A stretch of DNA of 64,000 nucleotides, from positions 52,206,001 to 52,270,000 of the forward strand of contig OZ076409.1 of the NCBI GenBank assembly GCA_964187785.1, written 5' to 3'. Positions 17,430 through 62,358 of the stretch are shown here, one piece after another. The notes under the pieces were generated by a model, which searched no databases, was not told where the DNA came from, and was given only the letters and a program-made list of their open reading frames with translations. The first letter of the stretch is position 1, and the number at the start of each line of letters is the position of its first letter. A program made the position numbers and the translations under genes. The stretch comes from Amphiscolops sp. MND2022. Lineage: Eukaryota.

Positions 17430-17827
17430 CTTTTCTTCCCTTTCATACCTCCCACATAGCTCATCTCTTGCAATATATTTTTTTGTCTCAAAAGAGTCCC
17501 CCTTTAGTTTTTTTACCTTTTCAACGTAGCCTACAAAACAGGATGTGCCTAAATGGTCCCCCCTTTGGATTTTTTCGGCACTGTGCGACTTTTTTTCGAA
17601 AATTTTTTGTTGTCTCCAAAAGGACCCCCCTTTGAGTTTTTTGATGTTTTGCAACAGAATGTATGTTAATAAATGCAAAAGGGGGTTCCCCTTTTTACAT
17701 TTTTCGGCACCATGCGACATTTTTTGAAAGAAAAAAATTGCAAAATTTCAAGTTTTTTCTCCAAATAAATGTTTTGCGCTTTTTGAGCCTTAGATATAGC
17801 GCCCACTTTAGACGTTCTCGTCTTGTT
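17430..17827 (+). mobile_element. Helentron/DINE-1-like non-autonomous repeat (3' part)
   Basis: Shares the 3' end GAGCCTTAGATATAGCGCC..AGACGTTCTCGTCTTGTT and internal blocks with copies at 29430, 33180 and 38268. Confidence 0.6.
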
Positions 17828-38768: not shown

Positions 38769-40469
38769 ATTCACTAGAGAAGCTCTCATTTTCTAAAATG
38801 TAAGATGATGCCTCGAAGAGCAAAGAGCATTTGATTGAAATGCGAAAATAAAATTGCATAGTTGTTAGAAATGTCATACACACGGTTGGTATCACCTAGA
38901 AAACACTAATATAAAAGATTTTAAAAAGCCGGAAACAAACATTTGTTCGGTTTGTTTTCTGTTTGGGAATTTTTGTTTGAAAAATAACTGCTTGCAAAAT
39001 GGACAGTAGATATCCAACCAAATTCGTTTAGAGCGTACTGACAGTGCTCTGGCGTCTTATAATTCATTTTCGTTTTTTTCTCATTTTAAGGAGGGAATAC
39101 GTTTTGGCGTAAAATATTGGACAGTAGCGAAAGTCGAAATTCTGATAGACCATTCTGATTGGGAATTCGGGTCCAAGACAACGCTTCCATCAGAAGGTCA
39201 ACTTCCATATAAATGCAACATGGCATATCGCAAATCGACCGCCCTATCCGTTTTGTCGCATTCTTCTGTCTTAAAAATGAAAAGAAGTGACTGTAATATA
39301 ATAATGTAGCGCATACAGTGTTTTTATTAAGAAGTAAGACACCAATAGTAAAGCATTAACAAAGAGCCCAATGGCAGTGTGATAACTTTGGTCCATTCTG
39401 ATGATACGTCTTCAAAAAAAACGCACTTTCCGGATTTAACTGCTTGACAAAAAGTATAGAAAAATTTTGAACTACAAAGTCGCTAAAAATCTGTAAATTG
39501 CATCAGGAAGTTATGCATTTAGATTTGTAGGAGCTTACTTCGAACACACGTTTTCCTTTGCGTAACTAGTTCCAATATATTTTGGAAACACGTTGCAAAA
39601 GGCATTTCTATCGCTGAAGGCGTTTCAGCAGAAAACGTTTGTCGCCTGATATGAGTTGTCGCTTGATATGAGTTGTCGCTATGCCATTTAGGACAACCCG
39701 GCATAGCGACAACTCATATCAAGCAACAACTCATATCAGGCGACAACTCATATCAATTTGAAAAGGCGCTAATTCATATCAAGCGATAATTCAGATCAAT
39801 ATGGAAAAAGCGACAACTCATATCAAGTTTGCCAGGAGGTTCAAAATACCTAAATTTTACTTCAAGAACAAATTATTATCAAACATAATTAACGGTAATT
39901 AGAAATTCCAAAGTTACACTATTCTTGACCATGGTGAACTCATGTGTTGTGTTTACCACATCTTTTTCCTCAGTTTAATACTTTTAAAACATCTATATAA
40001 AATTATTTCATCGGAGCTAGAATAAAATTATTCACTTTCCGTAAACCATTTTTTGCATTCTTTCAATTTTCAAGGCACGCTTGGAAAAATTTTAGAAGTA
40101 AACAAATTCAAAACTGCGCATCACTTGAAAGAACAAATTCCCCTATACAAAGGAGACGCTTGCCACTTGTGCAAATAATTCTCTTTTGTTCCTCTGGAAA
40201 AGACAATATGCGACGCCACTTGTGCGAGCACATATCTCTGAGAAGAGAACAATAGGCGCCACTTGTGCGGCCGGAGCTTCTCAATTTGAGAACAAAAGAC
40301 TATTTAAGCGAGACCAAAAGTCCTCACTTGAGAGAACTAATTCCCCTGATATAAACAAAAATTGCGTCAGCCAACTCATCTAGCCGAGTTAAATGACTAA
40401 CTGATGCAATCTTTGCCGACTTGTACTCGGCCTTGCCTGGTCCTGAAGTCATTTCCGAGTGGGGACCGA

Positions 40470-40686: not shown

Positions 40687-41039
40687 TATTTTCTTTAACT
40701 AAGAAAATAACAATAAAATTCCCAAGTCAAATGTTCTTCATTTTTCCCTCTATTCTTGTCTTCGTGACAACAAACTCGCAGTTATTCGACTGAATAAAAA
40801 GTTAACCAACAAGGTTCTCCTATGGAATCATTAGGGAATTTTATCTTGAGCTGAACGCTCCAAAAAATCCAGCCCCTCGATTGAGATTTATCGTCTCTCT
40901 AAAGCATGCTATCGCGTCAAGACTTAGCAAATGCTAGTCAAAGTTAACTTACAACCTAACTAAAATTAAAATTAAAGTCTAAAATGCATGTAACCTCTTG
41001 AAATTTTAGAACCGAATCTTAAGTTCGAGTTTTCTGACA

Positions 41040-44000
41040 ATACTACACAAAAAAGCAACCTAGCTAAACGCTGGTTGAATAAGATTTTATTTTACTTAGA
41101 CTCGCAAGACGTCTTCAAAGTCTTGACGTTAGACAATCTTGTCTTCTTTTGACTCCTGATGATGAAGCCAAAAGAGCACAATCAAGAGCTAATGAAGAGA
41201 AGAAGGTCACCTTCACTAATGTCTACAACAAACGGAAGGGACCAGGATTTGGATCACAACAAAATTATCAGCCTTCACCAAGACCAAACTTCATGAATAA
41301 TCAGAGGACTAACCAACAGTCTAACCCAAAACTTCAACAGAGGAAGACCTAACGAAGGAAATCATCGAGATGATAACTGGAACCGAAATAACTCTCAGCA
41401 GTCGAACAAATTCAATACCTTCAATAACAACAACAATCACTCTTCAGGTAGTAGGTCGACTCCTACTAATACTAATTTACGAAGCAATACCTCCTATACT
41501 GGAAATAGACCAAATAGCCCGTATAACTTTAGTGCACGACCACAAAACTCAAGTTCTGAGTACAACCGGAACTTCCCAACCAACAACAACAGTTTCCCAA
41601 ACTCCGTACAGCTCATCGACGAAGAAGGACAGGACAGAGTTAGTACAATCTCGTTCAATCCTTTAAACTGCTAAAGTCTCCGCGACCAGACAAAGAAATT
41701 AACCTCGAATCACGATTTCACCTAAATCTCTTCTTGTTCCCCACCGAAGACTCCAGAAAAGATAGTGGGTTAGAAATTGAATTCATGCTGGACACAGGAG
41801 CAGCCTGTTCGATCATCAATTACAGAGCTTTCGAGGAAATTGCACAAACCGGACATCCCATCACGGTAGTCACAAGTAAACAATTGACTAAAATCTATAC
41901 TGGTGAGGTCATACCGATGCTAGGATCAACAAAAATCGCCTTCAGCTTCGACTCGGATGGACTCCATCCCGTAGAACTAAAGTTTTGGATAACAAAAGCG
42001 AAAACACCAAACTTGCTGGGAATAGATTTCCGCCTTCACTGCACAAAAAAGAAACTTAGCTAAACGCTGGTTGAATACGACTTTATTTTACTTAGAATCG
42101 CAAGACTTCTTCAAAGTTTTGACGGTAGACAATCTTGTCTCCTTTTGACTTAGCCACTGCTAGTCACATAAGTTAAATTCTTAAAGCACTACACCGAACC
42201 TTATGTTCGAGCAGCCTTTGTCAAGCCTGTATAAACACAAAACGTAGCTAAACGCTGGTTAATAACACCTTTACCTTACTTAGACTCGCAAGACTACTTC
42301 AAAGTCTTGACGTTAGACAATTTTGTCTCTTTCCGACTTAGCCACTGCTAGTCACATAAGTTAAACTCTTAAAGCACTGCACCGAACCTTATATTCGAGC
42401 AGCCTTTGGCAAGCCTGTCCAAACACAAAACTAGCTAAACACTGGTTAATAAGACCATTACCTTACTGAGACTCGCAAGACTTCTTCAAAGTCTTGACGT
42501 TTGACAATCTTGTCTCTTTTCGACTTGGCCACTGCTAGTCATACACATAAGTTAAACTCTTAAATTACTGCACCGAACATTACGTTCGAGCAGCCTTCGG
42601 CAAGCCTGTCGAAACACAAAACCTAGCTAAACGCTGGTTGATAAGTCCTTTACCTTACCGAGACTCGCAAGACTTCTTCAAAGTCTTGACGTTAGACAAT
42701 CTTGTCTTCTTTTGACTCCTGATGATGAAGCCAAAAGAGCACAATCAAGAGCTAATGAAGAGAAGAAGGTCACCTTCACTAATGTCTACAACAAACGGAA
42801 GGGACCAGGATTTGGATCACAACAAAATTATCAGCCTTCACCAAGACCAAACTTCATGAATAATCAGAGGACTAACCAACAGTCTAACCCAAAACTTCAA
42901 CAGAGGAAGACCTAACGAAGGAAATCATCGAGATGATAACTGGAACCGAAATAACTCTCAGCAGTCGAACAAATTCAATACCTTCAATAACAACAACAAT
43001 CACTCTTCAGGTAGTAGGTCGACTCCTACTAATACTAATTTACGAAGCAATACCTCCTATACTGGAAATAGACCAAATAGCCCGTATAACTTTAGTGCAC
43101 GACCACAAAACTCAAGTTCTGAGTACAACCGGAACTTCCCAACCAACAACAACAGTTTCCCAAACTCCGTACAGCTCATCGACGAAGAAGGACAGGACAG
43201 AGTTAGTACAATCTCGTTCAATCCTTTAAACTGCTAAAGTCTCCGCGACCAGACAAAGAAATTAACCTCGAATCACGATTTCACCTAAATCTCTTCTTGT
43301 TCCCCACCGAAGACTCCAGAAAAGATAGTGGGTTAGAAATTGAATTCATGCTGGACACAGGAGCAGCCTGTTCGATCATCAATTACAGAGCTTTCGAGGA
43401 AATTGCACAAACCGGACATCCCATCACGGTAGTCACAAGTAAACAATTGACTAAAACCTATACTGGTGAGGTCATACCGATGCTAGGATCAACAAAAATC
43501 GCCTTCAGCTTCGACTCGGATGGACTCCATCCCGTAGAACTAAAGTTTTGGATAACAAAAGCGAAAACACCAAACTTGCTGGGAATAGATTTCCGCCTTC
43601 ACTGCACAAAAAAGAAACTTAGCTAAACGCTGGTTGAATACGACTTTATTTTACTTAGAATCGCAAGACTTCTTCAAAGTTTTGACGGTAGACAATCTTG
43701 TCTCCTTTTGACTTAGCCACTGCTAGTCACATAAGTTAAATTCTTAAAGCACTACACCGAACCTTATGTTCGAGCAGCCTTTGTCAAGCCTGTCCAAACA
43801 CAAAACGTAGCTAAACGCTGGTTAATAACACCTTTACCTTACTTAGACTCGCAAGACTTCTTCAAAGTCTTGACGTTAGACAATTTTGTCTCTTTCCGAC
43901 TTAGCCACTGCTAGTCACATAAGTTAAACTCTTAAAGCACTGCACCGAACCTTATATTCGAGCAGCCTTTGGCAAGCCTGTCCAAACACAAAACTAGCTA

Positions 44001-47000
44001 AACACTGGTTAATAAGACCATTACCTTACTGAGACTCGCAAGACTTCTTCAAAGTCTTGACGTTTGACAATCTTGTCTCTTTTCGACTTGGCCACTGCTA
44101 GTCATACACATAAGTTAAACTCTTAAATTACTGCACCGAACATTACGTTCGAGCAGCCTTCGGCAAGCCTGTCGAAACACAAAACCTAGCTAAACGCTGG
44201 TTGATAAGTCCTTTACCTTACCGAGACTCGCAAGACATCTTCAAAGTCATGACGTTAGACAATCTTGTCCTCGACTTAGCAATTGCTGGTCATATAAGTA
44301 AAAATTTAATATTGAAACTCTTCAGCTTCTTATGAGCTAGAACTTCTGACAAATCTGTCACACCGTTGTCAAAAGACTTAGCAAAGAGAGACATTAAAAA
44401 GGTCGGAACAGACCAAAAAAATTTAATACGCGTTGTCCTAACAATGTGTTGAACGTATAAGGACTCAAAAATTTCTGTTTTTAGAGTATAAAAATAACTT
44501 ACCTGATTATCGCTACTTTAACCCATTGATGTATTTATATGGTGAATGTTAAAAAAGTCTGATATTTTTGATTGGATATTTATATCAATTTGGATGATCA
44601 TATTATTCTGTTTGTATTATATTCTTGCGTAATGTGTAAGAACGAACATTGTTGAAAATAATACTCAAACTAATTCAAATTCTTTTAATAAAATTAAATT
44701 CTTCTCTCGAAAGAAAGCTTTCCTTTTCCGACCGTCGTTGTGACACTAGAGACGAATACAGATATAGAACAACTGCAGAAAACAGGATGGCCAGATGAAG
44801 AAAATGCTGATAATGCAGCCAAAGCTGCACTGAACGCCCAAAGGAGACAAAAGTACATTGAATTTGCCGTCAGAGAACTAACGCCAAACAAACTCGAATT
44901 ACGGCTCACCAATACTTAATTGAACACCCCAACGCAACTTGGGAACAATTCCAGGAACACGTAACTAACAAATACCTTGTTTTTACTATCAGCGCACAGC
45001 TAGCCCGGAATTTCTCACAAAACCAAAAGACATTGATAAATGAACTACGAGAAGACATAAATGCAATGAAGAATATGCTAAAGAAACAACAAGTCAGTTC
45101 TTTAGCTGTAACTAATCCTTTACCCTATGGATGCTCATCCTCCCACTGTCATGACTATCACATCTCTGCAGTAGACGTAAATAAAACGTCCCGCCAAAAT
45201 ATCACACGATTTTGTAAATATTGCCAAAGGAATGGTCATACACTCCAATATTTCCGCGAAAAGATCTATGATGACGAAGCCAAAAGAGCACAATCAAGAG
45301 CTAATGAAGAGAAGAAGGTCACCTTCACTAATGACTACAACAAACGGAAGGGACCAGGATTTGGATCACAACAAAATTATCAGCCTTCACCAAGACCGAA
45401 CTTCATGAATAATCAGAGGACTAACCAACAGTCTAACCCAAAACTTCAACAGAGGAAGACCTAACGAAGGAAATCATCGAGATGATAACTGGAACCGAAA
45501 TAACTCTCAGCAGTCGGACAAATTCAATAACTTCAATAACAACGACAATCACTCTTCAGGTAGTAGGTCGACTCCTACTAATACTAATTTACGAAGCAAT
45601 ACCTCCTATACTGGAAATAGACCAAATAGCCCGTATAACTTCAGTGCACGACCACAAAACTCAAATTCTGTGTACAACCGGAACTTTCCAACCAACAACA
45701 ACAGTTTCCCAAACTCCGTACAGCTCATCCACGAAGAAGGACAGGACAGAGTTAGTACAATCTCGTTCAACCTTTTAAACTGCTAAAGTTTCCGCAACCA
45801 GACGAAGAAATTAACCTCGAGTCACGATTTCACCTAAATCTCTTCTTTTTCCCCGCCGGAGACTCCAAAAAAGATAGTGGGTTAGAAATTGAATTCATGC
45901 TGGACACAGGAGCAGCCTGTTCGATCATCAATTACAGAGCTTTCGAGGAAATTGCACAAATCGGACATCCCATCACGGTAGTCACAAGTAAACAATTGAC
46001 TAAAACCTATACTGGTGAGGTCATACCGATGCTAGGATCAACAAAAGTCGCCTTCAGCTTTGACTCGGATGGACTCCATCCCGTAAAACTAAAATTTTGG
46101 ATAACCGAAGCGAAAACACCAAACTTGCTGGGAATAGATTTCCGCCTTCACAAATACAGCACAAAAAAGAAACCTAGCTAAACGCTGGTTGAATAAGACT
46201 TTATTTTACTTAGAATCGCAAGACTTCTTCAAAGTCTTGACGGTAGACAATCTTGTCTCCTTTTGACTTAGCCACTGCTAGTCACATAAGTTAAACTCTT
46301 AAAGCACTGCACCGAGCCTTATGTTCGAGCAGCCTTTGTCAAGCCTGTCCAAACACAAAACGTAGCTAAACGCTGGTTAATAACACCTTTACCTTACTTA
46401 GACTCGCAAGACTTCTTCAAAGTCTTGACGTTAGACAATTTTGTCTCTTTCCGACTTAGCCACTGCTAGTCACATAAGTTAAACTCTTGAAGTACTGTGC
46501 CGAACCTTATGTTCGAGCAGCCTTTGGCAAGCCTGTCCGAACAAAAAACCTAGCTAAACGCTGGTTAATAAGACCTTTACTTTACTTAGACTTGCAAGAC
46601 TCTCTCGAAGTCTTGACGTTAGACAATCTTGTCCTCGACTTAGCAATTGCTGGTCATATAAGTTAAAATTTAATATTTAAACGCTTCAGCTTCTTATAAG
46701 CTAAAACTTCTGACAAATCTGTCACACCGTTGTAAAAAGCCTTAGCAAATCTCACTATTTTGTTGATAAAACTAAGAGACATTAAAAGGTCCGAACAAAC
46801 CAAAAATTTAATACGCGTTGTCCTAACAATTTGTTGAACGTATAAGGACTCAAAAATTTCTGTTTTTAGAGTATAAAAACAACTTACCTGATTATCGCTA
46901 CTTTAACCCATTGATGTATTTATATGGTGAATGTTAAAAAGTCTGATATTATTGATTGGATATTTATATCAATTTGGATGATCATATTATTCTCTTTGTA

Positions 47001-47100
47001 TTATATTCTTGCGTAATGTGTAAGAACGAACATTGTTGAATTTAATACTCAAACTAATTCAAATTCTTTTCCTAAAATTAAATTCTTCTCTCGAAACAAA
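41040..47100 (+). repeat. Higher-order tandem array: ~188-bp repeats interleaved with Gypsy gag-pro fragments
   Basis: 1563-bp period between ORF copies 41149/42712, 41370/42933 and 41734/43297; third copy at 45270-46150; block 44270-44715 repeated at 46635-47095. Confidence 0.9.
44717..46150 (+). pseudogene. Gypsy gag 3' part plus protease fragment (third family); shorter copies at 41157-42040 and 42720-43603
   Basis: Knuckle FCKYCQRNGH, N/Q-rich gag tail, TTTAAAC slippery site before the stop, protease EFMLDTGAACSII..NLLGIDF. Confidence 0.8.
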
Positions 47101-47426
47101 GTCCTTCCTGCGAAATCGGAAGACACAGAGACAACTTTTGTAATGTTTAGGAAGGCATAGTCGCAAGCTAACTCCTAAACACAACTGATTGAGAATCACC
47201 GAAAGCTAATTTTCCTGAACCCAATCGAACTTTTACACATGATATTGACCATGCATGAACTCGTTACTATTTTTTAACTTCTAATAATTACTTATCAATT
47301 ACCTAATTTTCTCTAATTATCTAATGAATTATTTGGAATAAATTTTATTATACTGACTTTAATTTTCTGATATGAGTTTTGATTGATATGAGTTGTCGCT
47401 TGATATGAGTTGTCGCTTGATATGAG

Positions 47427-48454
47427 TGTCGGAATGTGCATCAAGTTCATTTGATGTGGTAATGTTAGGGGCGTTCCCTTCTCTGTCATTAGAGGATGAC
47501 TTTTCATTAGACGATATTTTCTCGGTTAGAGCTAGAACTAGATTCGTCAGTTCACTTATTTGTCTGTTCATTTCCGTAAATCTCTGATTTACGGCTTGAC
47601 GTTCTGACTCGCCACTGAAATCCAACAGATTTCCATTGTCGAACTCGTTTATCTGTTCTCTCGTGAGAACTTCAGGGACACTACTTTCACTTTCGGTATC
47701 GCTATGTCGGTCAGGTCGGCACATGTGCGTTCGCTGGTTTTCTGCCACTTGAGATCTGGTATTGACCATTTCGAAGAGATATTGGGTTTTTGAGGTTTTA
47801 TTGAGTAATTGAGAGAATGGTTAAGCATTCTAGTGATGGAATTATATCAAACTGAGAGGTACGTATTTAGCAAACTGTTCGTCAAACTATCGCAAAATCT
47901 ACTGATGGTACAATTTCACTTGGTAGCAATTATGGCGACGTTGGTCACGTGACCACATCAACCAATCACATCGCTATTTTCGTTCGCACCTTTGTTAGTA
48001 ATCGCGCAATATTGTCGCAGCACCAAAATGAAATGTAGTTACGTTGCTATGGTTGCATGACTCAATTTGTATAATGATGTGGTTGCACTACTAGCATCAT
48101 ATATGTGAATGGTTAATGTATATAATTGTTTACAGGACTGACTGCACTGAAACGAAATCTGATGATGGCGTATCAGCCACATTACTTTCACTTCTAATTA
48201 AAATTCACGAAATTAATTTAAATGACATACGTAACTAATGTGTGAAATATGGGGGATAATAGTAAAGTTATTTAGGGACTGAATAGAAATGATTCTTTTT
48301 AGCAGATTCTAGTTCGAGTTTTATGATGTGGTTGACTTCACCACATTCTTTCCTTTCATCATCATCCTTTTACTGTTTGCATTTGTTTTGAGCTCAGGTA
48401 TGCAGGATGGTTGACCACATTCTTGTTTGATATTTTCATGCGTCAGGCATGACA
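47427..48454 (-). repeat. 3' LTR of element 4
   Basis: Direct repeat of 61331-62358; preceded on the minus strand by purine-rich AAAAAAAAAGACCCGGAG. Confidence 0.97.
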
Positions 48455-48472
48455 CTCCGGGTCTTTTTTTTT
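48455..48472 (-). promoter_or_regulatory. Polypurine tract (imperfect)
   Basis: Minus strand AAAAAAAAAGACCCGGAG abuts the TG of the 3' LTR. Confidence 0.6.
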
Positions 48473-49395
48473 GAAAGAGAACGTGTGGTTGGAATGGTGA
48501 ATTGTCTCGTTCGGTTGGTTGGAAGATCGGATGCGGCATGCTAGTTAGCAAAGTTGGAATTGCTGTATTCGTTAATTGGATTGAGTGCTCGTGTTGTTAT
48601 AGCGACCACATTAGTAGTGGCGAGTTGACTTTGTGGTTGGAAATAGACAGTGATGTTGTTATAGCAACCACATTGACAGCGGCGGATTGATTTCGTCAAT
48701 GTCGCAGGAAATTGTCGGTTTGATTACCGCTAGCTGCTAGTTCGTCTCGGTTCGGCAATCGAGAGGAAGAAAACTGAAAGTCGCGTGTTGACTGATCCAC
48801 TTCGGTAGAGAGTAAATGTAGAGTCGATGTGGCGAGAGTAGCCACGTCATCCAAGCGTGCGCGTTGTTTGCAGAGAGAGAGTTAGCGTAAGAATGAATTT
48901 GCCGGAAATCAATAACGTGGCAGCGTAATATAATTACTCGGCTTATTCGGGAACTGTTCGGAAGTAAGATGCAGTGGAAATGTCGTGCGCTTCGTAAACA
49001 AATCTTCGTCGATGCCAAAACCGAGAAACAAATCTTTCTCCATTATATTCATTGGTGCGATTCTTCAGCAGTTCAGTTCGGCCGCGGCTTACTGAGTGAA
49101 TGTATCAACTAAGCAAGTAGGCTATAGATAGGATAAGCCAGGGAGTCGTGTTGTGATTTTGACAAATTTTTCGGGTAGGTGTTGACCGTTTTAGAGGAAA
49201 TATTAGTAGACGGGTGACGGGAATTCGCTTGTCCCTTTGAAATTTTCGGGTAGTAACTTTGCATAGAGAATGTGGGTGATCAGGCCACATGATCCTTAGA
49301 AGTTAATTTGAATCTCAGTAAATCGCAAACGACTGTATGCTTCCAGATTGTTAGCCTTGATTTTATTCTTTTCAGACTTGCTTGTTATTGCCGTT

Positions 49396-52300
49396 ATGAG
49401 TTCAACGCCTCAAGTGGAGACGTCTCAGGCTGCGACTGATGTGGCTTCTGTTGTGTTAGCTGCGGAGGGAGTGTTCACTGAGTTGGCACAGTTAAGTTTT
49501 TCTTCGGTGGGCAGTGAATTAACAGCTGCTGTGGAGGAGACTCTGTCAGGAGAGCGTCTAGGAATTTGTTGCCGTTTCGCTGGGAAAGTGACTGCTGCCA
49601 ATAAAGAAGTAGCCAACACGTTATTAGAGATCGCTCTATCGAGTGAATTCCGTGAGTACCCTCAATTTCCAATATTTCGTTGTTCTTTTTCTTTTCGAAG
49701 TAGTAACCAGGGGAGGTTATCTTCCTTCAGAGCATCCTGAATTATGATATGCTAGTATGTGGTTTGCACGGTACTGGCATTGTGGCATGTACTTCCCGGG
49801 ATCAAATGCTCTGGGTAACTGATGTGGTAGCTAATTAGGCATTATTGTGCTTTTAGAAGAATTGTCACTCGTAGAGATTGTGAGTTTGCTCCGGAGACTG
49901 TTAGCTTCGAAACGGAGTATTGCTGCCAGTGGTGCTACTGAACTAACTGCTGTGGAGGATCGGCTCAGTTCTGTCCTCGGTGATGAGCGAGGTACGTAGT
50001 TGATTGTTATCCATTAGGTTGAATATACTTCCAGTCGTAGTTCACTGTTAGGATTGGCGGTATCTTGCATGTAGAATGGTGCACAGCATATGGTCAAAAT
50101 TAAGTTGTGTTGTAGGGACTGTTACAGGCTTGCCTGTAACCATTGCTGAGTTGGAGTCATCCTTTCAGCGGATGACGAAAGAATTGGCAGAGACTGTCAA
50201 AGCGATTATCGATTCCAAAATGGGCGGGCTGGGATCAGTCTGTGCGTTGTCCGTCGAGGAGTTCATCGGAAAGTTGAAAACAGCAATGGAGCACTTGGCT
50301 GCGTCTTCTGTGCCTGGTGGATCTGTCGAGCAAGCTGTGACAAGTGTGCCGTCAGTGCGGTTGGAAGCACCCGGGAGTCCTTTGGATGCCAGTAGTTCAC
50401 GATCTGTCAGCTTGAGTCAAGTGTCCGATGTTCCGACTGCTTTCGCTGGTGTCCGTTCAGTGGCTTCGAAAGAGGGGGGTATCTCCACATCCGCTACTGC
50501 TAAACCTGGTAAGAAATCTCAGAAGATCATGGGAGGGGTTTTAGTATTAGCACTTAGGTTAAGGATTACGATTTACGACACAAGTTTTTTTTTGGAGTTT
50601 GCTGTTTTCTATTGTAGGTCGCAATAAGAAGGTGAAGACGTTGAAGCCGGCCTATTTCGTTTCTGGTGTGGTGGGGACCTTTGTTGGTTTCCCACGACAT
50701 AAGCGCGTAGTCGACGGTTATGCCAGGTGCCTGTTGTGCAAAGTCGATCTCAGCATTGCCGGACGTGGTTTGTCTTCCTTGTGGGAGCATTGGCGGGGTG
50801 TAGAACATACCCGTGTGGAGCAGAAGTTTCGCATCATGATGCAGATGCCGTTACTTGATAAGGCCTGTCGGCGAGTGTCAGCAGAAGAAGACAGACGGAT
50901 TCGGCGAGCACGGATGTCTGAAGCGCCTGTGTTTTTGGAGTCAGAGCTGAGTCTCAGTGTTGATGAGAGGGTTGCCATTGAAGAGGCTGAAGCGGTTGCT
51001 GGAGGAAAACCTGTTTTGGGCGAGGAGAGCGTTTCAGTCTTGTGGTTGAGCCAATTTGTGAGCAGTTTCTGTAGTACTACAACATTCAGAGATGTGATGC
51101 AAATGGTGGAGTCGTGGCGGGACACCATGAATACGGAACTGCGAGTTGAGTGCCGCACCTTAACCTACACACGATGTCAGGTTTGTATCTACATAAGTTC
51201 ATGTCGATTTCTGTTTGTGTGTGATGAGGTCATCTAAGGGTTGTGGCTGTATGTTTGGGTGTGCAACTATGCGGCTATAGTTGAAATTGTGCAGAAAGAG
51301 GATGATTTTTTTATGTTTACAGAGTTTGGTTCACTATGGATTGTATCGGTTCGTCGTGGAGCAGTTAGATGAACTGATAGCTCGTGGTAAAGGCGCGAGT
51401 GTCAGTATCCGACGACATGAAGCAGATTGGTTGTGTGAGTGTCATGTGGTGTGCGACTACGCTGTGAAAACAATCGTTCTTGGTGTGGTGGTCGGCGGGA
51501 CCGGCTGGGAGAAGCGAATGCTCGATACTGTTGTTCCGGTGTTGTTGAGTCTGCCACATGCCTCTTCTATGAGAGCGTACAGCACGGAGTCAGATACCCG
51601 CATTGGATACGCGCTAGCAGCTTCAGTCGGGATCGTTGACCCTTTGGTTGTGGGTCGATTGACGCAAGTGTGGTTGTTTGACCTTGTTAGGAAGCACTTT
51701 CTTGCTGAGTTCGTGGGTCTGGATCCCCTCAGCGTTCTGGACTATTTGCGTGTTCGACTAGCCTCCGTGGTGCAGGAGAGAGTTCTGGATCGTTTGCCTC
51801 GTTTGAAACAAGTGAGTATTTTGAACTATACATGTATAGTATGTGGTATATCAAAGGACATTTGATCCAATTTTTTTTGGAGAGGAGTTGTTACTTTGCG
51901 GGGTCTACTTATTTTTCTTGCGTGGATGTTTCTTTTGTTGTTATAGTTTATACTAGTCGGAGGAAGTGATGTGGTTTCGTTGGCTGCTTTGTGTGCAGAA
52001 GTTGTCGAATACTGGAACGACCTTGCAGTCTATTTTGGAACTCATCGCCCCCATGTGACTTCTGAGTTGCGCCTGGTGACTCCGCTTGAGGGGCAGATAT
52101 TTGACGATGCCATGATGCGCCCTCGTTTTGCCGTTCTACGTTTCATTTTGGATTTGTGTTAGTATGGTTTTTTTGTAATTGAGTTCAGCTAGGATGTTGG
52201 TGGCTTTTGTCGACTTAAATCTTTATCCCCCCTTTTTTTTTCTAAATGGTACGTTCAAACTAATTATGAGCATGGGTTAACGTGTGTTGCGTTATGTTTA

Positions 52301-53658
52301 CAGTGGCCGAAACGTGTCCTCGATTGTGTAGGAGCAGCAGTGATAGTAACATGGTTGCTGAGCGTGAACTGTCACAATTCGTTCGGAGGCTGATGCGTTT
52401 AGTGTATCCTGAATCATTCATACCTGCTGAGTATGAAGTGGATTCTCTCCTGAAGCCAGTGGATCGCGATTTCTCTACAATAGACGAGAGTCTGTACCAA
52501 CTGCATTTTGGTCAGTCTTTCCGGTATGACGTTCGCACACAACTCCCGTTCTTCTACCGGTCAGTGCAGAAACTGTTGGGAGTGATATGCACAGAGCTTG
52601 TGGGGACGTGGCAATGTGGAGCTATTGACTACTTCAGTCTGACTCCTTTCGATCCACTGTTGGTGCATGGTGGGTCTGATGATCGCTGTATTGATGCTTT
52701 GGTCGGAACCTGTGCTACTCTTTCTCGTTATAATTTATTGAGCGACACCATAGCTGCGAATACCCTGAGACAATATCGGGAAGTGGCCCAATTTTTCAAA
52801 ACCAAGTGGACCTTGATTGAAGGCATGCCTGCAGTGGATGATGTAATCACGATGTGGTTCTCGTATCCTTTTTGGTCTCGATGTCAAGAGTTGTTGTCAG
52901 TGCTGAACCTATTGTTTGGACTTGCAGTTGTCGGAACTTACAACCCTAACTTCAGTGATGAGTTTGGTACTGCTATGTCTGTTGATACTCAGCGTTCTAG
53001 TCTGCATCTTGTCAGGAGTTGGTTTTCGAAGATGTTTGCGGGTCATACCCGTCAATCGCTCACTGGGTTACTACGTGTTTGTTCTACTAGTGATATGCAA
53101 GTGTCCCGATTAACAGATGAGGCGCGGTGCAGGCCTTGGGATCGGTTAATCAAATCAAGTCTGAGTGAAGCTCTCTCTTTGGGAAATGCTGTATTGTCCA
53201 ATGATCTAACTACTACCTCAACTGTGCCTATTGATGATTATCGATCGAATGTCTTGGCTCAATTGGATCTTGTGGAGGTATTGAGTCCCCCACGAGCTGG
53301 ACGGCGAAGCAGTCCCATTGGTGTCAGTAGTGCTGAGTCAAAAAAGAGTGCACGGAGGCAGATTGATGTGACCTTGGGCATTTGTGCGCCGTTTTCCGTT
53401 CAGACAGCCCCCAAGAAGAAGAGATCCGCCGTTAAGAATCCTAGAGGTGCGAGACGTTGTATGCCTTCAACTAGTCGTGGTGGTGTCCTTACGAGACAGT
53501 CAGTTGGGCGTAGAACAGGAGGGATTCCCCGAGGAACGAAACACTTGCAGTTAGCTAATGTTGTTGGCTCCGATGACGATTCAGCTAGTGAAGTAGTTGT
53601 GAGCGGGAGGAAACGACTGAGCCGTATTCACTTGGATTCGTCTGGATCAGGCAATTAA
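49396..53658 (+). CDS. 7-exon, 1133-aa gene antisense to gag-pol; BED-type zinc finger plus hAT-transposase-like body, apparently catalytically dead. Exons 49396-49651, 49857-49991, 50116-50508, 50618-51180, 51323-51811, 51947-52157, 52304-53658
   Basis: All six introns are GT-AG with pyrimidine-rich acceptors and matching phases (1,1,1,0,0,1); spliced CDS is 3402 nt with no internal stop. Finger motif ARCLLCKVDLSIAGRGLSSLWEHWRGVEH. The hAT assignment is by eye. Confidence 0.85.
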
Positions 53659-55230
53659 ATGTATGCGAACTTGTCTACCATGAAACTTATTTAGAAACTG
53701 TTATCTTTTCTGTTTGTTTTTTGGTCATAGTTCACTACAGTGAATTATTTGTGCTATTCCGATTCATTTTTGGTCAGTGTAGATTTGCTATTTGCTCGAT
53801 GTGATTTGATTATGTTACATTTTGATTTACATTTTTTGTGACGGCCTATGATTTGGTCTACATTTAGCTGATTGGTCGGCTAGTTTGCATGTTTTTCATG
53901 TGAATTTACATGTTGACTGTGTTATACTAATTTTTTGCGTGTGAATTTCGTTAACTGGTTTCAAAATGTTGGAGCGATAGGCTCAGCTTTGCAAGTCATT
54001 CAAGTTCTAGTAGAGTAGTCGCCTAGGTAACTACCATTGAAAAGCTCTCACTCACCAAAGGCCATTCTCGTCACAGCGTTGTTCATGATTATGGCTTACA
54101 TGTGACAGAGGTGGAAACTTGATGGGTGGGTGGAGTCGCTCAACTCCTACAGATGATTTGAACTTTTTGAGTAGCTGCTTTTATAGTGCTCTAGTTGGTT
54201 GTTTGACAGGTGTTTACTAACTTAAGTGTCAATTTAATCTGTCAATTCATGTCGAGTTTTACATATGTTTATTTCTCATGTAGCGTTATTCTTGACGTCG
54301 TCATCGTTGATGTGTGTCATGCGACGTCATCACTCGTGTCGTGTGTCAAGTGTTAACGTCAATTTTAATGGTAGATGGGTTTCCCCATGGCCATTAAACT
54401 TTTTGATAAGGGGTGGTGTGTACCATCCCTTGTTACGAATCTTCGGTGATGTAGTGAATATGACTGCATGTTTTTTGTTGTTCTGTCCTTCCTGCCGCGA
54501 GGCGAAGCCTACGAATCAACAGTAAGAACAAAAGTGTCGTGATCTAAATTCAATGTAGAGGTGACGACTGCATTTTACTGTCCTAGGAAATGTTTTATAT
54601 GTTGTTCGTTGGATTGGGAAGGTTATTTGCCGTCGCAAAAACCCATACAAAACTAGCACCGAATCCACTTGCTAAAAAGCAAGCTTCATCTGAATGTTTG
54701 CACAACCACACAGACGCGTTTTTGATGACGCACCCACACAGCCGAACCACATCATGATTTCAGAGGCGGAAGTGCGGGACTAGATTTTGGCGGTGTAACT
54801 TAACTAAGGCAGCTATCTCTTTTGCATGTTCGGTTGTGTGCTATTACTTTTGCTAAAATGGTTTATTTCTGTCGTCATAAGGTTGGTAAGTACAGAATTG
54901 CGAAGCAATTCCTTTGAAAGCGTGTGGTTGGGGTTTTCAGTGAATTGCATAATTTAGTCGCTCGATTGCATGTGTTTTACATGTACTTAATAATTTCCGG
55001 TTAACGTGATGTGTTGTGTATGACTGCATTACATGTAGTTACTTTTGCGCTCAGCTGTCTCGGTAGAGAGTAACAATTTACTCTGCCGGTAAACTCAAGT
55101 ATGTCGGATAGTGAGTATCAGTCGTCACTGAATGGCGTAAAATAGACTAAATAATTTAAAGGTATGATTGATGCATGTGGTGTTGTAGACTACATTCAGT
55201 TGAATGTGAAAATGAAATTTTAGGAAAATT

Positions 55231-58200
55231 TTACCAAAGGCTTGTTGATTTGCTTTGCATGAATTTTAAGAGTGCGGGCTTTGCTTGCAGTTCATGAACA
55301 AGAAAGTTGTCAAACGTTTTAGGCACGGGTGCCTCGCGAAGGCTGTATCGGGTAATGTTATTTCGTGTAATTGGTTGGGGTGTTTCGGCAGATGATGCGG
55401 TCGATTCCGCATCATTATTTGGATGGCTTTGTTGCTCAGGCAGTTGATCAGAAGACGGTGTGTCCATTTCATTTGATTGAATTTCAGCTTCAGATCGATG
55501 TGTACTGTCGGTGTGGACGGTCTCAGGTAGAGGGTTATCCAGAGGTGGTACCTCATGAACCCTTTTGTGTTCGTAATAGATTGCTCCATGCTCAGAGTCG
55601 ACTGTGTCAGTTTCATTTGTGTCTAGTTCTACTGTGTTTTCAGCGGGAGGTAGCGTTTCGGATGCAGGTAGATTATCGTTGAATATTGATTGATCGTCGA
55701 TTGCGTCAGGATCACTATAGTGTCGTGATGCATCGTCGTGTATGTCTTCGATGGAATCGTGTGGTACGAATGGGCGAAGCCGCATTCTATGTACGCACTG
55801 TGTTCGGAATGTACCAATTTTTCTGATGATATAGTTTGACTGTGACAGGACTTTAATTACCTTGTAAGGTCCTTCCCATTTGAAAGAATTGAAAGGGATT
55901 TTTTCGGATTGCTGGCCAATTTTGGGGTTCAGTAAAAAGACAAAGTCGTTTACTTTTAAAAGTGACGCTTGCGCTTTCCTGTCATAGTACGACTTGTATT
56001 TATGGAAAGCACGGATTATGTTGGTGTGTGTCTCTTTGAATTTCGCATTCAGGTTATCCACTAACGTCTTCGCGTCAACAGCGTTTCGAGGTGGATTGAG
56101 GGGGTTGCTGAACTTCAGATCTAGTGCATTATATGGTACTCGACCGTGGAAGACTTCAGTTGGAGAGCACTTCAGAGTCTGGTGGTAAGTCGTGTTATGT
56201 GCCATCACAGCGAGATTGACGTATCGGTCCCATTGTGGGCGGTCCACGGAAACGTTTATTTTCAGGACTTGTTTCAAGCGTTGATGTGATCTCTTGTTTG
56301 GGCATGTTTAATCGTTGCGTGGGAGACTTTGATCCCGGCTTTGTTCATCAGTTCAGTTATGACTTCGGACGTGAATGCAGAGCCTTTGTCGGTGATAATG
56401 TGTTTCGGTACATATGCATGTTTTGTGAAAATGTCTAGTAGAGCATTGACGACGGATTTCGTGTCAGGTTTGCGTATCAGGATAGCAAACAGATAACGTG
56501 AAAAATAGTCACAGGCCGTCATAATGTGTGAGTACCCATTAGATCGCGGCAACTCACCTACTAGATCGATTTCAAGAACATCCTCAGGACCGTTGCAGGG
56601 GTCATAAATTGGTTCGAGTGGAGGTATCAGAGTGTTTGGTTTTGCAGGTTTCGTTTTAATACATTCTTGGCAGTTGTTTACAAACTCTTGGACCTTTTCG
56701 GTTAAGTTTGGGACGTAGTACCTTTTCCTTAGTTCACTTAGCATTTTGGAAGCGCCAGGGTGTCCCTGCATGGGGTCGCCATGCATCGTCCTGATTATGG
56801 CTTCCGTAGTTTCTGGAGGAACTACATTTTGTCGGTAAGCTAGTTTTCCTACGTTGTCAAAAAACTGCCTGTACAACACGTTGTTCACTACTTCAAGTCT
56901 TTTACGGTTCTTGAAAAGTTTTTGGAAAAAGGTACTTGCAAAGTTCACTTGGTTCGGAGGGGTTTCCTGGACGGTAAGAATCCTAATTACACGTTGAACG
57001 TCACTGTTTTCGCCTTGAGCCTTAACAATTTCTGAAGTCCCCGAAGGGCATACCTGATTTACCATATGAACCTGGTTCCGTTGGTAGAATCGGGTGAAGA
57101 AAAGGGTCGGGTCGGAAGGTGTCACAAATGGTTGTATCTGGGACCTGATCTCACTGATGCGTCTATCGTACTGTTCCCCGTCTTCGTGGTGTTGCCGTGG
57201 GAACATTGCCAGTAGCGTTTGCATCGTCGGATTTGATGATGTGGTCACACCAGGTACATCGTGGTCTTCTGGGATGTACTCCTCCTCGTCATCGTCTTGT
57301 TTAGGCGTTTTGGATGCCAGGTCGATTTCAATTTTAAAGACTGGTATTTCGTCGTGGAGTTTGAGGTGGATCCTGTCTTTCGGTCTAATGTCAATTCTGG
57401 ACAGGTAGTCGGCTGCTGGGTTTTCGACGCCAGGTACATGGGCCAGGACGAAGTCGAATTGGAGGGCCTGGTCGCAGTAGTTCCACAGTTTCGGAGGAAT
57501 TCGCTTTGACTGGAAAAATCTTGTGAGGGCTTTGTTGTCAGTCATGACAATTGTTGGCTTCTTCACTCCCCACAAGATATGAGCGAATTCGTCGAAGGCG
57601 AAGTGCATGGCCAGGAACTCTTTTGCATACATCGTGAGTGACATCTGGCCCTCAGTAAACCTTTGTGAACCAAAGGATACTGGTGCGTATGACTTCGTTG
57701 GTCCATCATTCGTCTCGGTGTAATCCTCGATCAAGAGAACGTATCCAGCTGCATGCTCGCTAGCATCGCACATGATCACGAGCTGTTTGTCCGGAAGTGG
57801 TAGTCGCAGGGACATCTTGGCTGCATTTGCGAGGTTCTCATTGATGTCGAACATGGCATCTTTGTGGACTTGAGTTAGTTCGAATTTGACGTCTTTCTGC
57901 AGGAGTTTGTAGAGTGGTACAAGTTTTTCAGCTAGGCATGGGATGTATTGGCGGTAGAACTGGACGAATCCAATGTACCGTTGCAAGGACTTCACAGACG
58001 TTGGTAGTTTGATGTTTTTCAAGAACTTGTCAATTTTTTCCTCGATGGGAGCAACTCCCTTGGAGGTGATGCTTCGTCCCAGAAATTCTAACTCGGGGTG
58101 TCCGAAAGCGCATTTAGCCTTTGACAGTTTCAGGCCAGCTTGTCTGATTTTGATGAACACAGCCTCAATATTGTCGACGAGCTCTTCGACATTGTTGGCT

Positions 58201-60153
58201 GCAATGCCGATGTCGTCGACGTATTGGGCACATTTGTCAGCCTTGACCAAGGGGTCCAAGTACTCTCGAACAGTACTGTTGAAGGCTGAATGTGATCGGT
58301 TCAATCCTTGGGCTAGTCTGAGGTAGGCGAACGTCCTACTTCCAAAGTTGAAAGCGAGTAACTGGACTGACTGTTCGTCTGCCATCTGCAAGCAGTGATA
58401 TGCTTGTGAACAGTCCAGTTTGCAGAAGTATCGTTTTCCTGCCATGTGCTGCGCTGCATCTGCCATCGTCGTCACCGGATGATTGTGTTGATTGTAGTCG
58501 TTCTTCAGTAGGTGATTGATTCTTCTCAGATCTACGAGGATTCTAAGCTTCCCATTCGGCTTGCGTTGGGCGAAGATGGGTGATGAGTACTTGCTGTACG
58601 GCAATGTTGTGATTATGCCGTACTCCTGCATCAACGCCAATTCAACGAGTAAGTCGTCCTTCAGGTTCGTCGGTGTGGGTAAGCTTTGGGCATAGACTGG
58701 TTCGTCGTGTTTAGGAGTCAACTTTATCTTGAATTCGGTGTTGATTCCTATGTCCAGTCTATGTCTGGCGAAGATGTCATGGTACTTGACCAATAGATCC
58801 TCAATTTGTTGCTTCTCGTGAGGGTTCAGTATTGATTGTTCCCACTGGAAATTTGCCAGAAATTCATGCCGTTGTTCTTCGCTTGATGTTGGATCCAGTT
58901 TCTCCTCTGCCCTGAGTTTGACGATTTCGTCATAGATTCGTTTTTCAATCCTGTTGAGTTTTGATGGGTCGTCACAAGTCTCAGGGGTAGGGTACCATCG
59001 TCTATCTGATTTGGTAGTCGGATCCTGGAAGATTTGGTTCAAGACAGCTTCAGCATCATCTGGGTACTGTGAAATCAGGTGTAGTTGTTGATTGGTCATC
59101 GGTTGAAGGTTGTTAGCTTGCTTCGGTGTCATTATCTTGAATGATGCTACCGGTGTACCCACATTGATGGTGATTTGGTAGTCGAGTGGGTTTGTGATCT
59201 GGACATGAGTCCGCCCCTCCTGGGTCTCGCTGAGAGCCGGAGAAACCAACAGGTGTGAGCGTCTTTCGAACGCTGGTAGTCCTTCGACAGTGCCAGTGAT
59301 GTCACCTAGATCGCGTTCAATCACCACTGGGACGAACACTTGTTGGTTGGGTTGGATCACAGTCTTCTCGGTTGTCTTCAGTTCTAGTAGTTTGTTCTTG
59401 AATTTCCCGTTGACTGATCGCAGTTGGAGGGTGATGTTCGGGAATTTGACGATGTTGTTGGCCAGGTCTAGCGTAACGGAGTATTTTTGAAGAAAGACAT
59501 TCCTATAAGTACGTTCCCCATCGTCGGGAGGACCATGAATGTTTCTTCAAATATTTTGCCGCCGATGAAGAATCGAAGCAGGACTTGCTTCTTGACTGGG
59601 ACGATGTTTCCGTTGGCAATCTGCACTTTGAACTCCGGGGCAGGGAGTTCCTGGAGGAGGGCGGCTGGGTGGGCTGCAAGGATGCGGCGGAGTTCCGCTT
59701 CTGAGAGAGCACTCTGGATTGCTCCCGTGTCAAGTAGGCCGAAGTTTTCGTATTCTCGGAATTGGAGTGGTACGTAGAGCATCCTGTCCTTTTTATTGAG
59801 TTGGAGGGTGGCACTCAACTGGCGTATTTCGTACTTCGGCTTCTTCGGTTTTGTGGTTTTGGCGATGTGGTTCGTTTGTCATCATTTGGTTGGTCAGGCA
59901 GTGTGCATTCTGAACTCGGCTGTTGGATGTTGTGGACTTCGGGTCTTCGCTTGGTCTCCTTTGGTTTAATGGTGTAGTTGTCAGTTGAATGTCTTGTGAT
60001 GACAAAGTTAGTAGTCTCCTTAGTGTAAGTTGGAGGACGGGACTGCCACCCCGTATGGTTTCCAGTATGTAGTCGAGTCTGAGGAGTAGTTTGTTGGTGT
60101 TGGTTTAGTAGCGCACTTTTGTATGTTTGGGGAGGATGACGTGGCTTTAGAAG
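55231..60153 (-). pseudogene. pol: pol of element 4 (PR-RT-RNase H-IN-GPY/F) with three frame disruptions
   Basis: LLDTGA, QYVDDI, CDASEHAAG, H..GHPG..CQEC, IDLVG / CDYFSRY / ITDKG, WEGPYKV. Apparent 1-nt losses in A-runs at ~59850 and ~59486, and a small frameshifting deletion at ~56293. Confidence 0.92.
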
Positions 60154-61673
60154 TTTTTTGGATCTTCTACGTCATCGTGTCGTTCTGTTTCCTCAGCATT
60201 TTCGGTGTCATCGTTGGGGTTGTGGGACATCTCATTGGCGTTGTAGACCCTGTTGTTGGTCTGTTTGAAGTCCCTTCTAAATTGTCGGTTTTCCTCGGTC
60301 GACTGCTTAGGATACGGGACGCTGCGGTAGGCTGATGTCGCCGTATTCCTATAGTAGCAATCTCGGGCGGAGTGTCCCACTTTGCCACAGATTTGGCATA
60401 CAAGTTTGGCGTTGTATTTCGGCCTGGTCTCTTGAGGTTGGGCTGGTTGTTGCTGGTTTTGGCCCTGGGGTTTGGTTGGTGCTTCTTCCCGGAGGCGTTT
60501 CCTGCATTCAGCCCACTTGTGACCATGTATTCCGCAGTGGCGACATTGGCCATCAAATTTTCGTTTTGTCTCCCTGGGTTGCTGGGTTTGGACGTTAGAT
60601 GTCTGAGGTGTGGTTACATTCGGCTGGGGTGCGCTTATCTGATTGAATGGTTGCGCATTGGTTGTGTTAGGAATGAGCTGCGCATATTGACATCTGCGCT
60701 GCACAAATGTCCTGATCTCCTCCATCGATGCATCGTGTTTACCTGCCATGGCCAAATCGTTTTGCATTTGGACTGGGAGTTTCGCAAATAGAAACGTCTC
60801 TGTAATATCACTGGACTTGTCCCCAAATGCCTGCTTTGCGACCTTTTTGAACTTGTTGAGGAAGTCATTGAAGGTCTCTGCTGTAGGGTCGTAGCGCATT
60901 TGGTCAAATTTGTATTTGGCCACTTCCTTCAAATCTTCTTTTGCGTATTCCTTCTTGAAGTAACGCAGTACTTGGGCCAGTGTCGTCTGGTTCGTTATTT
61001 TCAGCGACTGCCAAAATTCAATGGCATCGTCGCGTAACAGGCTCTGGAAATATGTCAGTTTCTGTTCTTCTGACAATTTGTGTTGGTGTGGCCTGAGGTG
61101 GTTGAGCAGCAGGTGCTCAAACTCGTTGTACTTTTCCCGGTTTCCGCGGAATAGTGGAACTTGTGTGTGCAATATTTTTGGATGTTGCACCGTGTCCGTC
61201 ATCGTGTCCCTCAGATGATGGATTTCAGTGACAATGTCATCGTACTGCTGGGCGGATGACTGAGGGTATTGTGAGGTGGATTGTCGTGGTGGGTTCGGTA
61301 GGTAGTTGGTCGTTGGAACTCCTGTCACCATGTCGGAACGTGCATCAAGTTCATTTGATATGGTAATGTTAGGGGCGTTCCCTTCTCTATCATTAGAGGA
61401 TGACTTTTCATTAGACGATATTTTCTCGGTTAGAGCTAGAACTAGATTCGTCAGTTCACTTATTTGTCTGTTCATTTCCGTAAATCTCTGATTTACGGCT
61501 TGACGTTCTGACTCGCCACTGAAATCCAACAGATTTCCATTGTCGAACTCGTTTATCTGTTCTCTCGTGAGAACTTCAGGGACACTACTTTCACTTTCGG
61601 TATCGCTATGTCGGTCAGGTCGGCACATGTGCGTTCGCTGGTTTTCTGCCACTTGAGATCTGGTATTGACCAT
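60147..61673 (-). CDS. gag: Gag polyprotein, 508 aa, two CCHC zinc knuckles
   Basis: Intact ORF; CRHCGIHGHKWAEC and CQICGKVGHSARDC; ends at the A-AAA-AAC slippery site. Confidence 0.95.
   Translation of the reverse strand: MVNTRSQVAENQRTHMCRPDRHSDTESESSVPEVLTREQINEFDNGNLLDFSGESERQAVNQRFTEMNRQISELTNLVLALTEKISSNEKSSSNDREGNAPNITISNELDARSDMVTGVPTTNYLPNPPRQSTSQYPQSSAQQYDDIVTEIHHLRDTMTDTVQHPKILHTQVPLFRGNREKYNEFEHLLLNHLRPHQHKLSEEQKLTYFQSLLRDDAIEFWQSLKITNQTTLAQVLRYFKKEYAKEDLKEVAKYKFDQMRYDPTAETFNDFLNKFKKVAKQAFGDKSSDITETFLFAKLPVQMQNDLAMAGKHDASMEEIRTFVQRRCQYAQLIPNTTNAQPFNQISAPQPNVTTPQTSNVQTQQPRETKRKFDGQCRHCGIHGHKWAECRKRLREEAPTKPQGQNQQQPAQPQETRPKYNAKLVCQICGKVGHSARDCYYRNTATSAYRSVPYPKQSTEENRQFRRDFKQTNNRVYNANEMSHNPNDDTENAEETERHDDVEDPKNF
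61317..61330 (-). promoter_or_regulatory. Primer-binding site of element 4
   Basis: TGGTGACAGGAGTT immediately after the 5' LTR CA; TGG complements the tRNA CCA end. Confidence 0.8.
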
Positions 61674-62358
61674 TTTGAAGAGATATTGGGTTTTTGAGGT
61701 TTTATTGAGTAATTGAGAGAATGGTAAAGTATTCTAGTGATGGAATTATATCAAACTGAGAGGTACGTATTTAGCAAACTGTTCGTCAAACTATCGCAAA
61801 ATCTACTGATGGTACAATTTCACTTGGTAGCAATTATGGCGACGTTGGTCACGTGACCACATCAACCAATCACATCGCTATTTTCGTTCGCACCTTTGTT
61901 AGTAATCGCGCAATATTGTCGCAGCACCAAAATGAAATGTAGTTACGTTGCTATGGTTGCATGACTCAATTTGTATAATGATGTGGTTGCACTACTAGCA
62001 TCATATATGTGAATGGTTAATGTGTATAATTGTTTACAGGACTGACTGCACTGAAACGAAATCTGATGATGGCGTATCAGCCACATTACTTTCACTTCTA
62101 ATTAAAATTCACGAAATTAATTTAAATGACATACGTAACTAATGTGTGAAATATGGGGGATAATAGTAAAGTTATTTAGGGACTGAATAGAAATGATGCT
62201 TTTTAGCATATTCTAGTTCGAGTTTTATGATGTGGTTGACTTCACCACATTCTTTCCTTTCATCATCATCCTTTTACTGTTTGCATTTGTTTTGAGCTCA
62301 GGTATGCAGGATGGTTGACCACATCCTTGTTTGATATTTTCATGCGTCAGGCATGACA
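61331..62358 (-). repeat. 5' LTR of element 4, containing the first 114 codons of gag
   Basis: Direct repeat of 47427-48454; gag ATG at 61673; AATAAA at ~61706-61701 on the minus strand. Confidence 0.97.

Follow-up and report, generated by a model that had tools for sequence, protein, structure and literature searches.

A putatively spliced antisense gene in a Ty3/gypsy retrotransposon

The DNA analysed here, hereafter the window, is a stretch of 64,000 nucleotides of contig OZ076409.1 from Amphiscolops sp. MND2022, in which a Ty3/gypsy retrotransposon of 14.9 kb (47427–62358, minus strand) carries a gene antisense to itself. This gene, referred to as the cargo gene, lies between the integrase and the 3′ long terminal repeat (LTR) on the strand opposite to pol, and its seven GT-AG exons (49396–53658, plus strand) join into a frame with a single terminal stop, encoding the protein of 1133 amino acids that an earlier note on this DNA had proposed. 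At the level of sequence, the data support homology of this protein to hAT DNA transposases, loss of the catalytic triad, a spliceable structure, purifying selection and linkage to the element. The features of the element and of the gene are as follows.

47427–48454, minus: 3′ LTR, 1028 bp, TG..CA, 10 mismatches against the other LTR, flanking 5-bp duplication ATGAG
47831–49395, no strand assigned: U3 and cargo promoter region, in which CCACAT/CCACGT repeats run in either direction (13 in 1625 nt) as candidate binding sites
48455–48473, minus: polypurine tract (PPT) adjoining the 3′ LTR, assigned from its sequence; same tract in other copies
49396–49651, plus: cargo exon 1, start codon, N-terminal region without hAT counterpart
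49857–49991, plus: cargo exon 2
50116–50508, plus: cargo exon 3, Ser-rich, poorly conserved
50618–51180, plus: cargo exon 4, BED-like CCHH zinc finger C299–H325 (50728–50808) with recognition helix 314–321 (50773–50796), and the start of the hAT DNA-binding/dimerisation region
51323–51811, plus: cargo exon 5, RNase H-like sheet, R479 (51410), E538 (51587), lost CxxH at about 51659–51670
51947–52157, plus: cargo exon 6, beginning of the helical insertion domain, no hAT Arg-Trp motif
52304–53658, plus: cargo exon 7, insertion domain, helix with N896 (52942), C-terminal hAT region, basic tail
53410 and 53608, plus: basic tail motifs in exon 7, PKKKR at residue 1052 and RKR at residue 1118
55231–59800, minus: pol with protease, reverse transcriptase (RT), RNase H and integrase in gypsy order
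60147–61733, minus: gag frame with two zinc knuckles
61313–61330, minus: candidate primer-binding site (PBS), a stretch starting with TGG within the gag frame, conserved in copies
61331–62358, minus: 5′ LTR, in which the gag frame begins

The carrier has the TG..CA LTRs, short target duplication, PBS, PPT and pol order of a Ty3/gypsy element; pol of the window copy is broken by frameshifts near 59,550 and 56,290. Since gag starts inside the LTR (61331–61733), more than 100 gag codons are present in both LTRs and the PBS falls within gag, and the same start inside the LTRs was seen in most lineages checked.

Splicing of the cargo gene is inferred from the conservation of splice sites among copies: the six sites tested were intact in 25/25 or 26/26 near copies, and the donor chosen for exon 6 was GT in 20/20 divergent paralogues. 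An alternative exon 6 donor, giving a product of 1127 amino acids, was discarded on the latter ground. No intronless cargo copy was seen, and long frames that could have been taken for one proved to contain in-frame introns; a search of RNA runs gave no RNA holder among those listed. In one lineage (L038, L051–L054, L056, L057) intron 4 is about 90 bases long, in frame and stop-free in 7 copies, and some transcripts might retain it.

A search of the 1.07-Gb assembly with exon 7 gave at least 140 scored places with 48–100% identity, and a search with a 42%-identical paralogue gave at least 136 places in other identity groups; both counts are lower bounds whose mutual overlap was not computed. 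Synonymous sites were saturated between lineages, while the non-synonymous difference was 0.06–0.15 in the finger region and 0.17–0.43 elsewhere, so that the zinc finger is the best-conserved part of the protein. Among near copies, pN/pS was 0.23, 0.36 and 0.55 for exon 5, the core of exon 7 and the tail, respectively. The linkage to an LTR retrotransposon claimed for the window copy was seen at most loci: pol or an integrase end convergent with the cargo gene was found in 18/20 and 8/10 cargo-picked loci within the stretch fetched, and the cargo gene was present at 12/16 RT-picked loci, even though those 16 had been chosen for being missing from the cargo lists. Judged by these counts and substitution patterns, the cargo gene has hundreds of copies, which purifying selection maintains and which almost always have pol as their neighbour. 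It has been kept open in young, fast-spreading lineages, and one exon-7 protein occurs identically at 15 places.

Several observations on the copies may be added. In the mosaics L037 and L048 (with L158 and L112), the LTR, promoter and pol are of the window type and the cargo gene comes from another lineage; the cassette has therefore been exchanged by recombination. Among L002–L027, rare transitions were about 1.9 times commoner at CpG (84/7770) than at other C/G sites (190/32717), hinting at modest methylation of the copies, and CpG was barely depleted overall. Two exon-5-like proteins, P0151 and P0238, show no more than 34% identity to any sequence found in this genome, which makes a wider occurrence of the family, in other organisms, probable. 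Scans of metagenome and viral contigs found no relative, and a search for exon 7 homologues among longer proteins returned 1 open reading frame (ORF) and no annotated full-length protein.

Relationship of the cargo protein to hAT5-type transposases

A short motif led to a transposase fragment in the same genome, and through this fragment 92 full-length relatives, hereafter the donor family, were retrieved. Cargo residues 263–975 were colinear with this animal hAT transposase family in a profile–profile alignment (probability 95.5, E = 1.5e-8 for one pair, 627 columns, 14% identity), and in controls the probability was 0.1 with reversed columns and at most 3.8 in 25 block shuffles. Likewise, the donor profile matched the spliced cargo protein with E = 8.5e-8 for one sequence, compared to 0.024 for the best of 200 shuffles. 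The hAT-like segments quoted in the earlier note are all present and in order, and the alignment sets each of them opposite the motif suggested for it. When the protein was divided, the probabilities were 84 for the finger, 27 for exon 5, 78 for residues 613–975 and 69 for everything behind the finger, whereas residues 346–449 alone gave no signal against the donor profile (probability 0.1). The helical insertion domain and the C-terminal dimerisation region are tentative assignments, placed by the profile match of residues 613–975; their structure model is of low confidence.

A search of the Atlas, in which the short motif played no part, pointed to the same origin. With the exon 4–5 frame of a paralogue as query, the top clusters were the hAT-derived ZBED5/FAM200/GTF2IRD2 (score 0.90), and the ten best named matches were all hAT-derived; the top match shared 138 features, below the 170 typical of same-family matches. 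The fold model of this frame consisted of strand-strand-strand-helix-strand-helix-strand, a five-strand RNase H-like core with a predicted local distance difference test score (pLDDT) of about 70 (45.5 on average for the whole model), and fold searches with it matched RNase H-like proteins, Hermes among them.

The donor family itself aligned with 6 canonical hAT transposases of this genome at a probability of 90, and the two Asp, CxxH, Arg-Trp and Glu fell into the same columns. Its elements in this genome bear CAGGG terminal repeats and 5-bp duplications in 7/8 copies, and a 5-bp target duplication is described as a mark of the hAT5 group (PMC12730594). We therefore call the donor family hAT5-type, a label that rests on the 5-bp duplication and not on a comparison with Repbase. 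The 8-bp target duplication that the earlier note had put forward as a test is accordingly unsuitable for this family. The copies of donor type in the same genome (L071, L073, L078, L080, L082, L084, L085, L093) have CAGGG repeats, CAGGGAA-rich ends and 5-bp duplications, and those examined are internally deleted or interrupted. The 92 proteins (P0002–P0093) form a widespread animal family in which D, D, CxxH, RW and E never vary, and Pfam failed to recognise hAT in 28/28 proteins scanned.

There are also results that weigh against a hAT origin or lend it no support. No Pfam family exceeded its cut-off for any cargo exon or paralogue scanned; zf-BED, which had been expected, reached the cargo finger only with E = 0.06, under the cut-off, and PF05699 had no match in the cargo protein, nor in 28/28 donors tested. 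Hermes was not the top match of the fold searches, but stood at rank 11 (Z = 5.4, root-mean-square deviation 4.5, 113 aligned), and did not stand out by Foldseek (E = 0.014, 282 columns). The exon 7 model had a mean pLDDT of 49 and no informative match, Hermes not being listed, and an Atlas search with exon 7 gave no usable match. Searches of PDB sequences returned no meaningful match for the exon profiles and only zinc-finger-level matches for the donor profile. Finally, direct comparison of the cargo protein with the 6 canonical hATs gave a probability of 0.5, so that the link to Hermes-like enzymes runs via the donor family.

The state of the active site was read from the same alignment. 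In the donors D211, D278, C310, H313 and W379 were invariant (92/92), as was E662 (91/91), and the corresponding triad positions of the window copy are R479, placed by an ungapped register, E538 and N896. Hence the proposal that all three catalytic positions are lost holds for the window copy, but the family retains some of them: at position 479, the first Asp, neither D nor E was found in 81/81 loci with all three positions readable, whereas position 538, the second Asp, was D or E in 57/77 non-redundant rows (the change in the window being a conservative Asp-to-Glu), and position 896 was still Glu in 11/34 rows, in some lineages. No intact triad was found by alignment to the transposases. 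CxxH and Arg-Trp (the hAT Trp), invariant in 92/92 donors, are absent from the cargo columns. D494 was considered as the first catalytic Asp and dropped, as both the profile alignment and the paralogue columns place the site at 479. The zinc ligands C299, C302, H319 and H325, on the other hand, align with those of the donors and were kept in 35, 37, 35 and 34 of 40 non-redundant rows, respectively, and the basic C-terminus is present as described. Around the gene, neither an inverted repeat between the flanks at E<0.5, such as hAT terminal repeats would give, nor a donor-type subterminal repeat was found.

Two alternatives bear on these results. The protein might not be derived from hAT at all but combine a zinc finger with an unrelated RNase H-like fold, the alignment reflecting general helix patterns; the identity of only 14%, the short motif from which the search started, the silent residues 346–449 and the uninformative C-terminal model would all fit this. 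However, three separate stretches match the right parts of the donor profile in order, and the motif-free Atlas search reached hAT-derived families independently of that starting point, so we consider this account improbable. Alternatively, the protein might still be a nuclease with a rebuilt active site. Besides the acidic residues kept at 538 and 896, an alternative register at 481 shows Asp in 22/60 rows, and the degraded copy L165 reads E-D-E, being acidic at 481, 538 and 896. Against this, position 479 is never acidic, the three positions vary independently, no locus reads D-D-E even when 481 is used, the model places 481 in a hairpin turn, and CxxH, RW and flanking terminal repeats are missing; among all alternatives weighed in this study it is the one to which we give least credence. 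We thus conclude with high confidence that the cargo protein originated from a hAT5-type transposase, as judged from the profile alignments, and with equal confidence that it would lack a working hAT active site.

Repeated LTR motifs and the finger recognition helix

In the U3/promoter region of the window, ACCACA was observed 9 times, where 0.84 would be expected and no more than 5 appeared in any of 500 shuffles, and the following base was T in 30/35 cases across 7 lineages. The repeated motif is lineage-specific, being ACCACAT in the window lineage and ACGACTG in others, and ACGACTG recurs in four LTR groups whose regions barely align. Hermes reads bases with S66, N67 and R70 just before the zinc His (PMC10368747), and these would correspond by spacing to cargo residues 314, 315 and 318, which vary by lineage. 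Loci with Ser315 (n = 18) had a median of 8.5 CCACRT and 1 CGACTG, while those with Asn or Ile315 (n = 18) had 1 and 5, respectively. The two mosaics with window-type LTRs and foreign cargo genes differed from their cargo relatives in 18/681 columns; 4 of these 18 agree with the window lineage, and the sole derived residues among the 4 are E318 and R321, which are encoded by codons of their own lineage. All 7 elements with Glu/Arg at 318/321 had a window-type U3 with 4–6 sites, whereas 7/9 of the remaining Asp318 elements had different U3 types with 0–2 sites. In L162, the LTR-side region has another repeated motif (GATGAA 18 times, ACGATG 9 times), and its finger helix is the same as in L138.

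The link between helix and motif has to be set against several points. It rests on a small number of independent events, and related elements have both traits in common; L047 carries D318/K321 in spite of a window-type U3 with 6 sites, L041 is half window-type, L165 combines Ser315 with 4 CGACTG, and L131, L161, L162, L167 and L173 combine Asn315 with 0–2 CGACTG. The U3 of L048 is 99% identical to that of the window, and therefore that pairing of U3 and cargo gene is recent. The two mosaics were not sisters on a quick cargo tree (no bootstrap, 27/32 rows, 5 short rows dropped), so that one gain with a later reversal is possible. Other finger positions vary as well, host DNA of equal length has top 6-mer counts of 4–10, and ACCACA is also the core Runx site, so host factors could explain the repeats. 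In sum, sequence-specific binding of the cargo protein to its own LTR, whatever the sign of its effect, seems rather probable from this covariation.

We propose the following course of events. An ancestral Ty3/gypsy element would have acquired a hAT5-type transposase, inserted antisense to the element. The insert would then have shed its terminal repeats along with the first catalytic Asp, CxxH and Trp, and selection would have retained it since. The gene would be transcribed from the side of the 3′ LTR and then spliced, and its introns would pass through retrotransposition intact, the genomic RNA being of the opposite strand. The protein may enter the nucleus through its basic tail and multimerise on the kept transposase scaffold, so that several zinc fingers could bind the short motif repeats in U3 and in its own promoter, in the manner of hAT transposases on subterminal repeats. 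Once bound, it would activate or shield the LTR in trans, similarly to VANC and TnpA without being one of them; in plants, transposases activate cognate copies (10.64898/2026.08.24.746577). Nuclear location, DNA binding and sign of regulation are thus steps that we infer. The earlier note had suggested LTR regulation or anti-silencing, and the lineage-specific LTR motifs, which track the recognition helix in most loci, lend this circumstantial support. That the cargo protein is a self-encoded, non-cutting, sequence-specific LTR regulator acting as activator or anti-silencer appears to us about evenly balanced. More tentatively, and somewhat on the doubtful side, the captured class II transposase may serve a clade of animal LTR retrotransposons as its own transcription or anti-silencing factor, with finger and LTR sites co-evolving into a private switch for each lineage.

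Other functions would be compatible with the same origin. The protein, or the antisense transcript itself, might act as a brake that represses the LTR or limits copy number, as HBZ does in HTLV-1; position and orientation are those of retroviral antisense regulators (PMC11963269, PMC7264820), and the motif data are silent on the sign of the effect. Yet the cargo gene stays open in lineages that are young and spreading fast, including the 15 places with the identical exon-7 protein, and the transposase-derived regulators tested in plants activate (10.64898/2026.08.24.746577), which leaves a brake unlikely. A role in integration, in which the protein attaches to chromatin or to the ends of LTR cDNA and helps the pre-integration complex by tethering, importing or protecting it, would account for the retention of the entire transposase scaffold beyond the finger, for the motifs inside the LTR and for the basic tail. 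This we consider less likely still: the motifs occur also in the cargo promoter outside the LTR, and cargo cassettes have been swapped between pol lineages. Integration targeting, which the earlier note had also raised, found no support at the level of target sequence; 5-bp duplications were present in 11/12 LTR pairs, no two alike, and sequence-specific target choice was rejected as the flanks of the 12 pairs had no common sequence. An accessory factor at the RNA level, which might for example help to export or protect unspliced genomic RNA in the way of CERV of Cer1, is conceivable for an element as long as 14.9 kb, and such factors are reported for animal gypsy elements (PMC10309623); the best-conserved part is, however, a finger of DNA-binding type and the motif repeats stand in both orientations, so that we rate this as quite improbable.

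The window contains further repeats. The element is inserted into a 17-bp tandem array (47368–47426), and related arrays in both orientations at 39639–39827 are possibly the ends of another transposon. Tandem 1.56-kb duplications with 188-bp sub-repeats inside lie at 41039–47100. At 1780–17000, both strands contain the broken remnants of older LTR retrotransposons (protease, RT and zinc knuckle matches), with a 2.4-kb tandem duplication (2531–7376), and a dispersed repeat of 125-bp units occurs in both orientations at 17477–17827, 29430–29763, 33183–33619 and 38488–38611.

Comparison with known systems

The cargo protein is colinear over about 690 residues with hAT5-type transposases, from the CCHH finger through the DNA-binding helices, the RNase H-like sheet and the helical insertion to the C-terminal region, but unlike them it has no DDE triad, CxxH, RW or terminal repeats, and it has six introns, an extra N-terminus of 260 amino acids, a basic tail and a retrotransposon as carrier. 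In plants, Tat/Retand gypsy elements bear extra antisense ORFs (Grande gene23, RIRE2, Retand TRP28), and the cargo gene resembles these in being antisense, between pol and the 3′ LTR, and present in most copies. The plant ORFs have their own promoter, are proposed to be nuclear DNA-binding regulators, and are reported to show no similarity to other transposon proteins and to be of unknown origin (PMC11963269, PMC7264820). The cargo gene differs in being spliced, in encoding 1133 amino acids and in having a traceable transposase ancestor, and the TRP28 domain (PF04195) gave no Pfam match in any cargo exon or paralogue scanned. The cargo protein is therefore neither a hAT transposase as an enzyme nor a member of the TRP28 family.

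With VANC of VANDAL (PMC5735166) and TnpA of Spm (10.64898/2026.08.24.746577), the cargo protein has in common that it is an element-encoded accessory protein and that short motifs, here candidates for lineage-specific sites, are repeated in the non-coding DNA of the element; TnpA, like the cargo protein, is derived from a transposase. Both belong to plant DNA transposons, and for both binding and demethylation have been demonstrated; the words 'retrotransposon' and 'LTR' are absent from the examined passages of the TnpA paper. Here, in contrast, the carrier is a retrotransposon and the donor comes from another class, and the likeness to VANC and TnpA would be one of working mode. The host-domesticated proteins ZBED5, FAM200, GTF2IRD2 and EPM2AIP1 are likewise hAT-derived and represent the nearest Atlas clusters. 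These are single-copy host genes, whereas the cargo gene is multicopy, mobile and domesticated by another transposon. Bdelloid LTR elements with a captured ORF3 likewise come from animals and have an additional gene that follows pol, but that gene is an env, a GDSL esterase or a DEDDy exonuclease, not a transposase (PMC5408684). No title or abstract describing an LTR retrotransposon that domesticated a DNA transposase was found in a literature search that left most subscription journals, Repbase Reports and supplements outside its scope, so that a database annotation is possible, and no such case appears in the accessible parts of PMC6431247 or PMC5408684.

Hosts are known to domesticate transposases, and in plants DNA transposons have done so with their own; in the present case a retrotransposon has domesticated a protein that stems from the other class of element. 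At the same time, an antisense accessory gene of a gypsy element gains a traceable origin, which is lacking in the plant cases. Even if the guess at function fails, the capture and the long conservation stand. A sharp test is offered by the finger, which is small, has residues specific to each lineage and is matched by candidate sites. If the protein does activate the LTR or counter its silencing, VANC would have a counterpart in an animal retrotransposon, and the lineages of the cargo protein would provide a natural series for the study of co-change between a protein and its sites.

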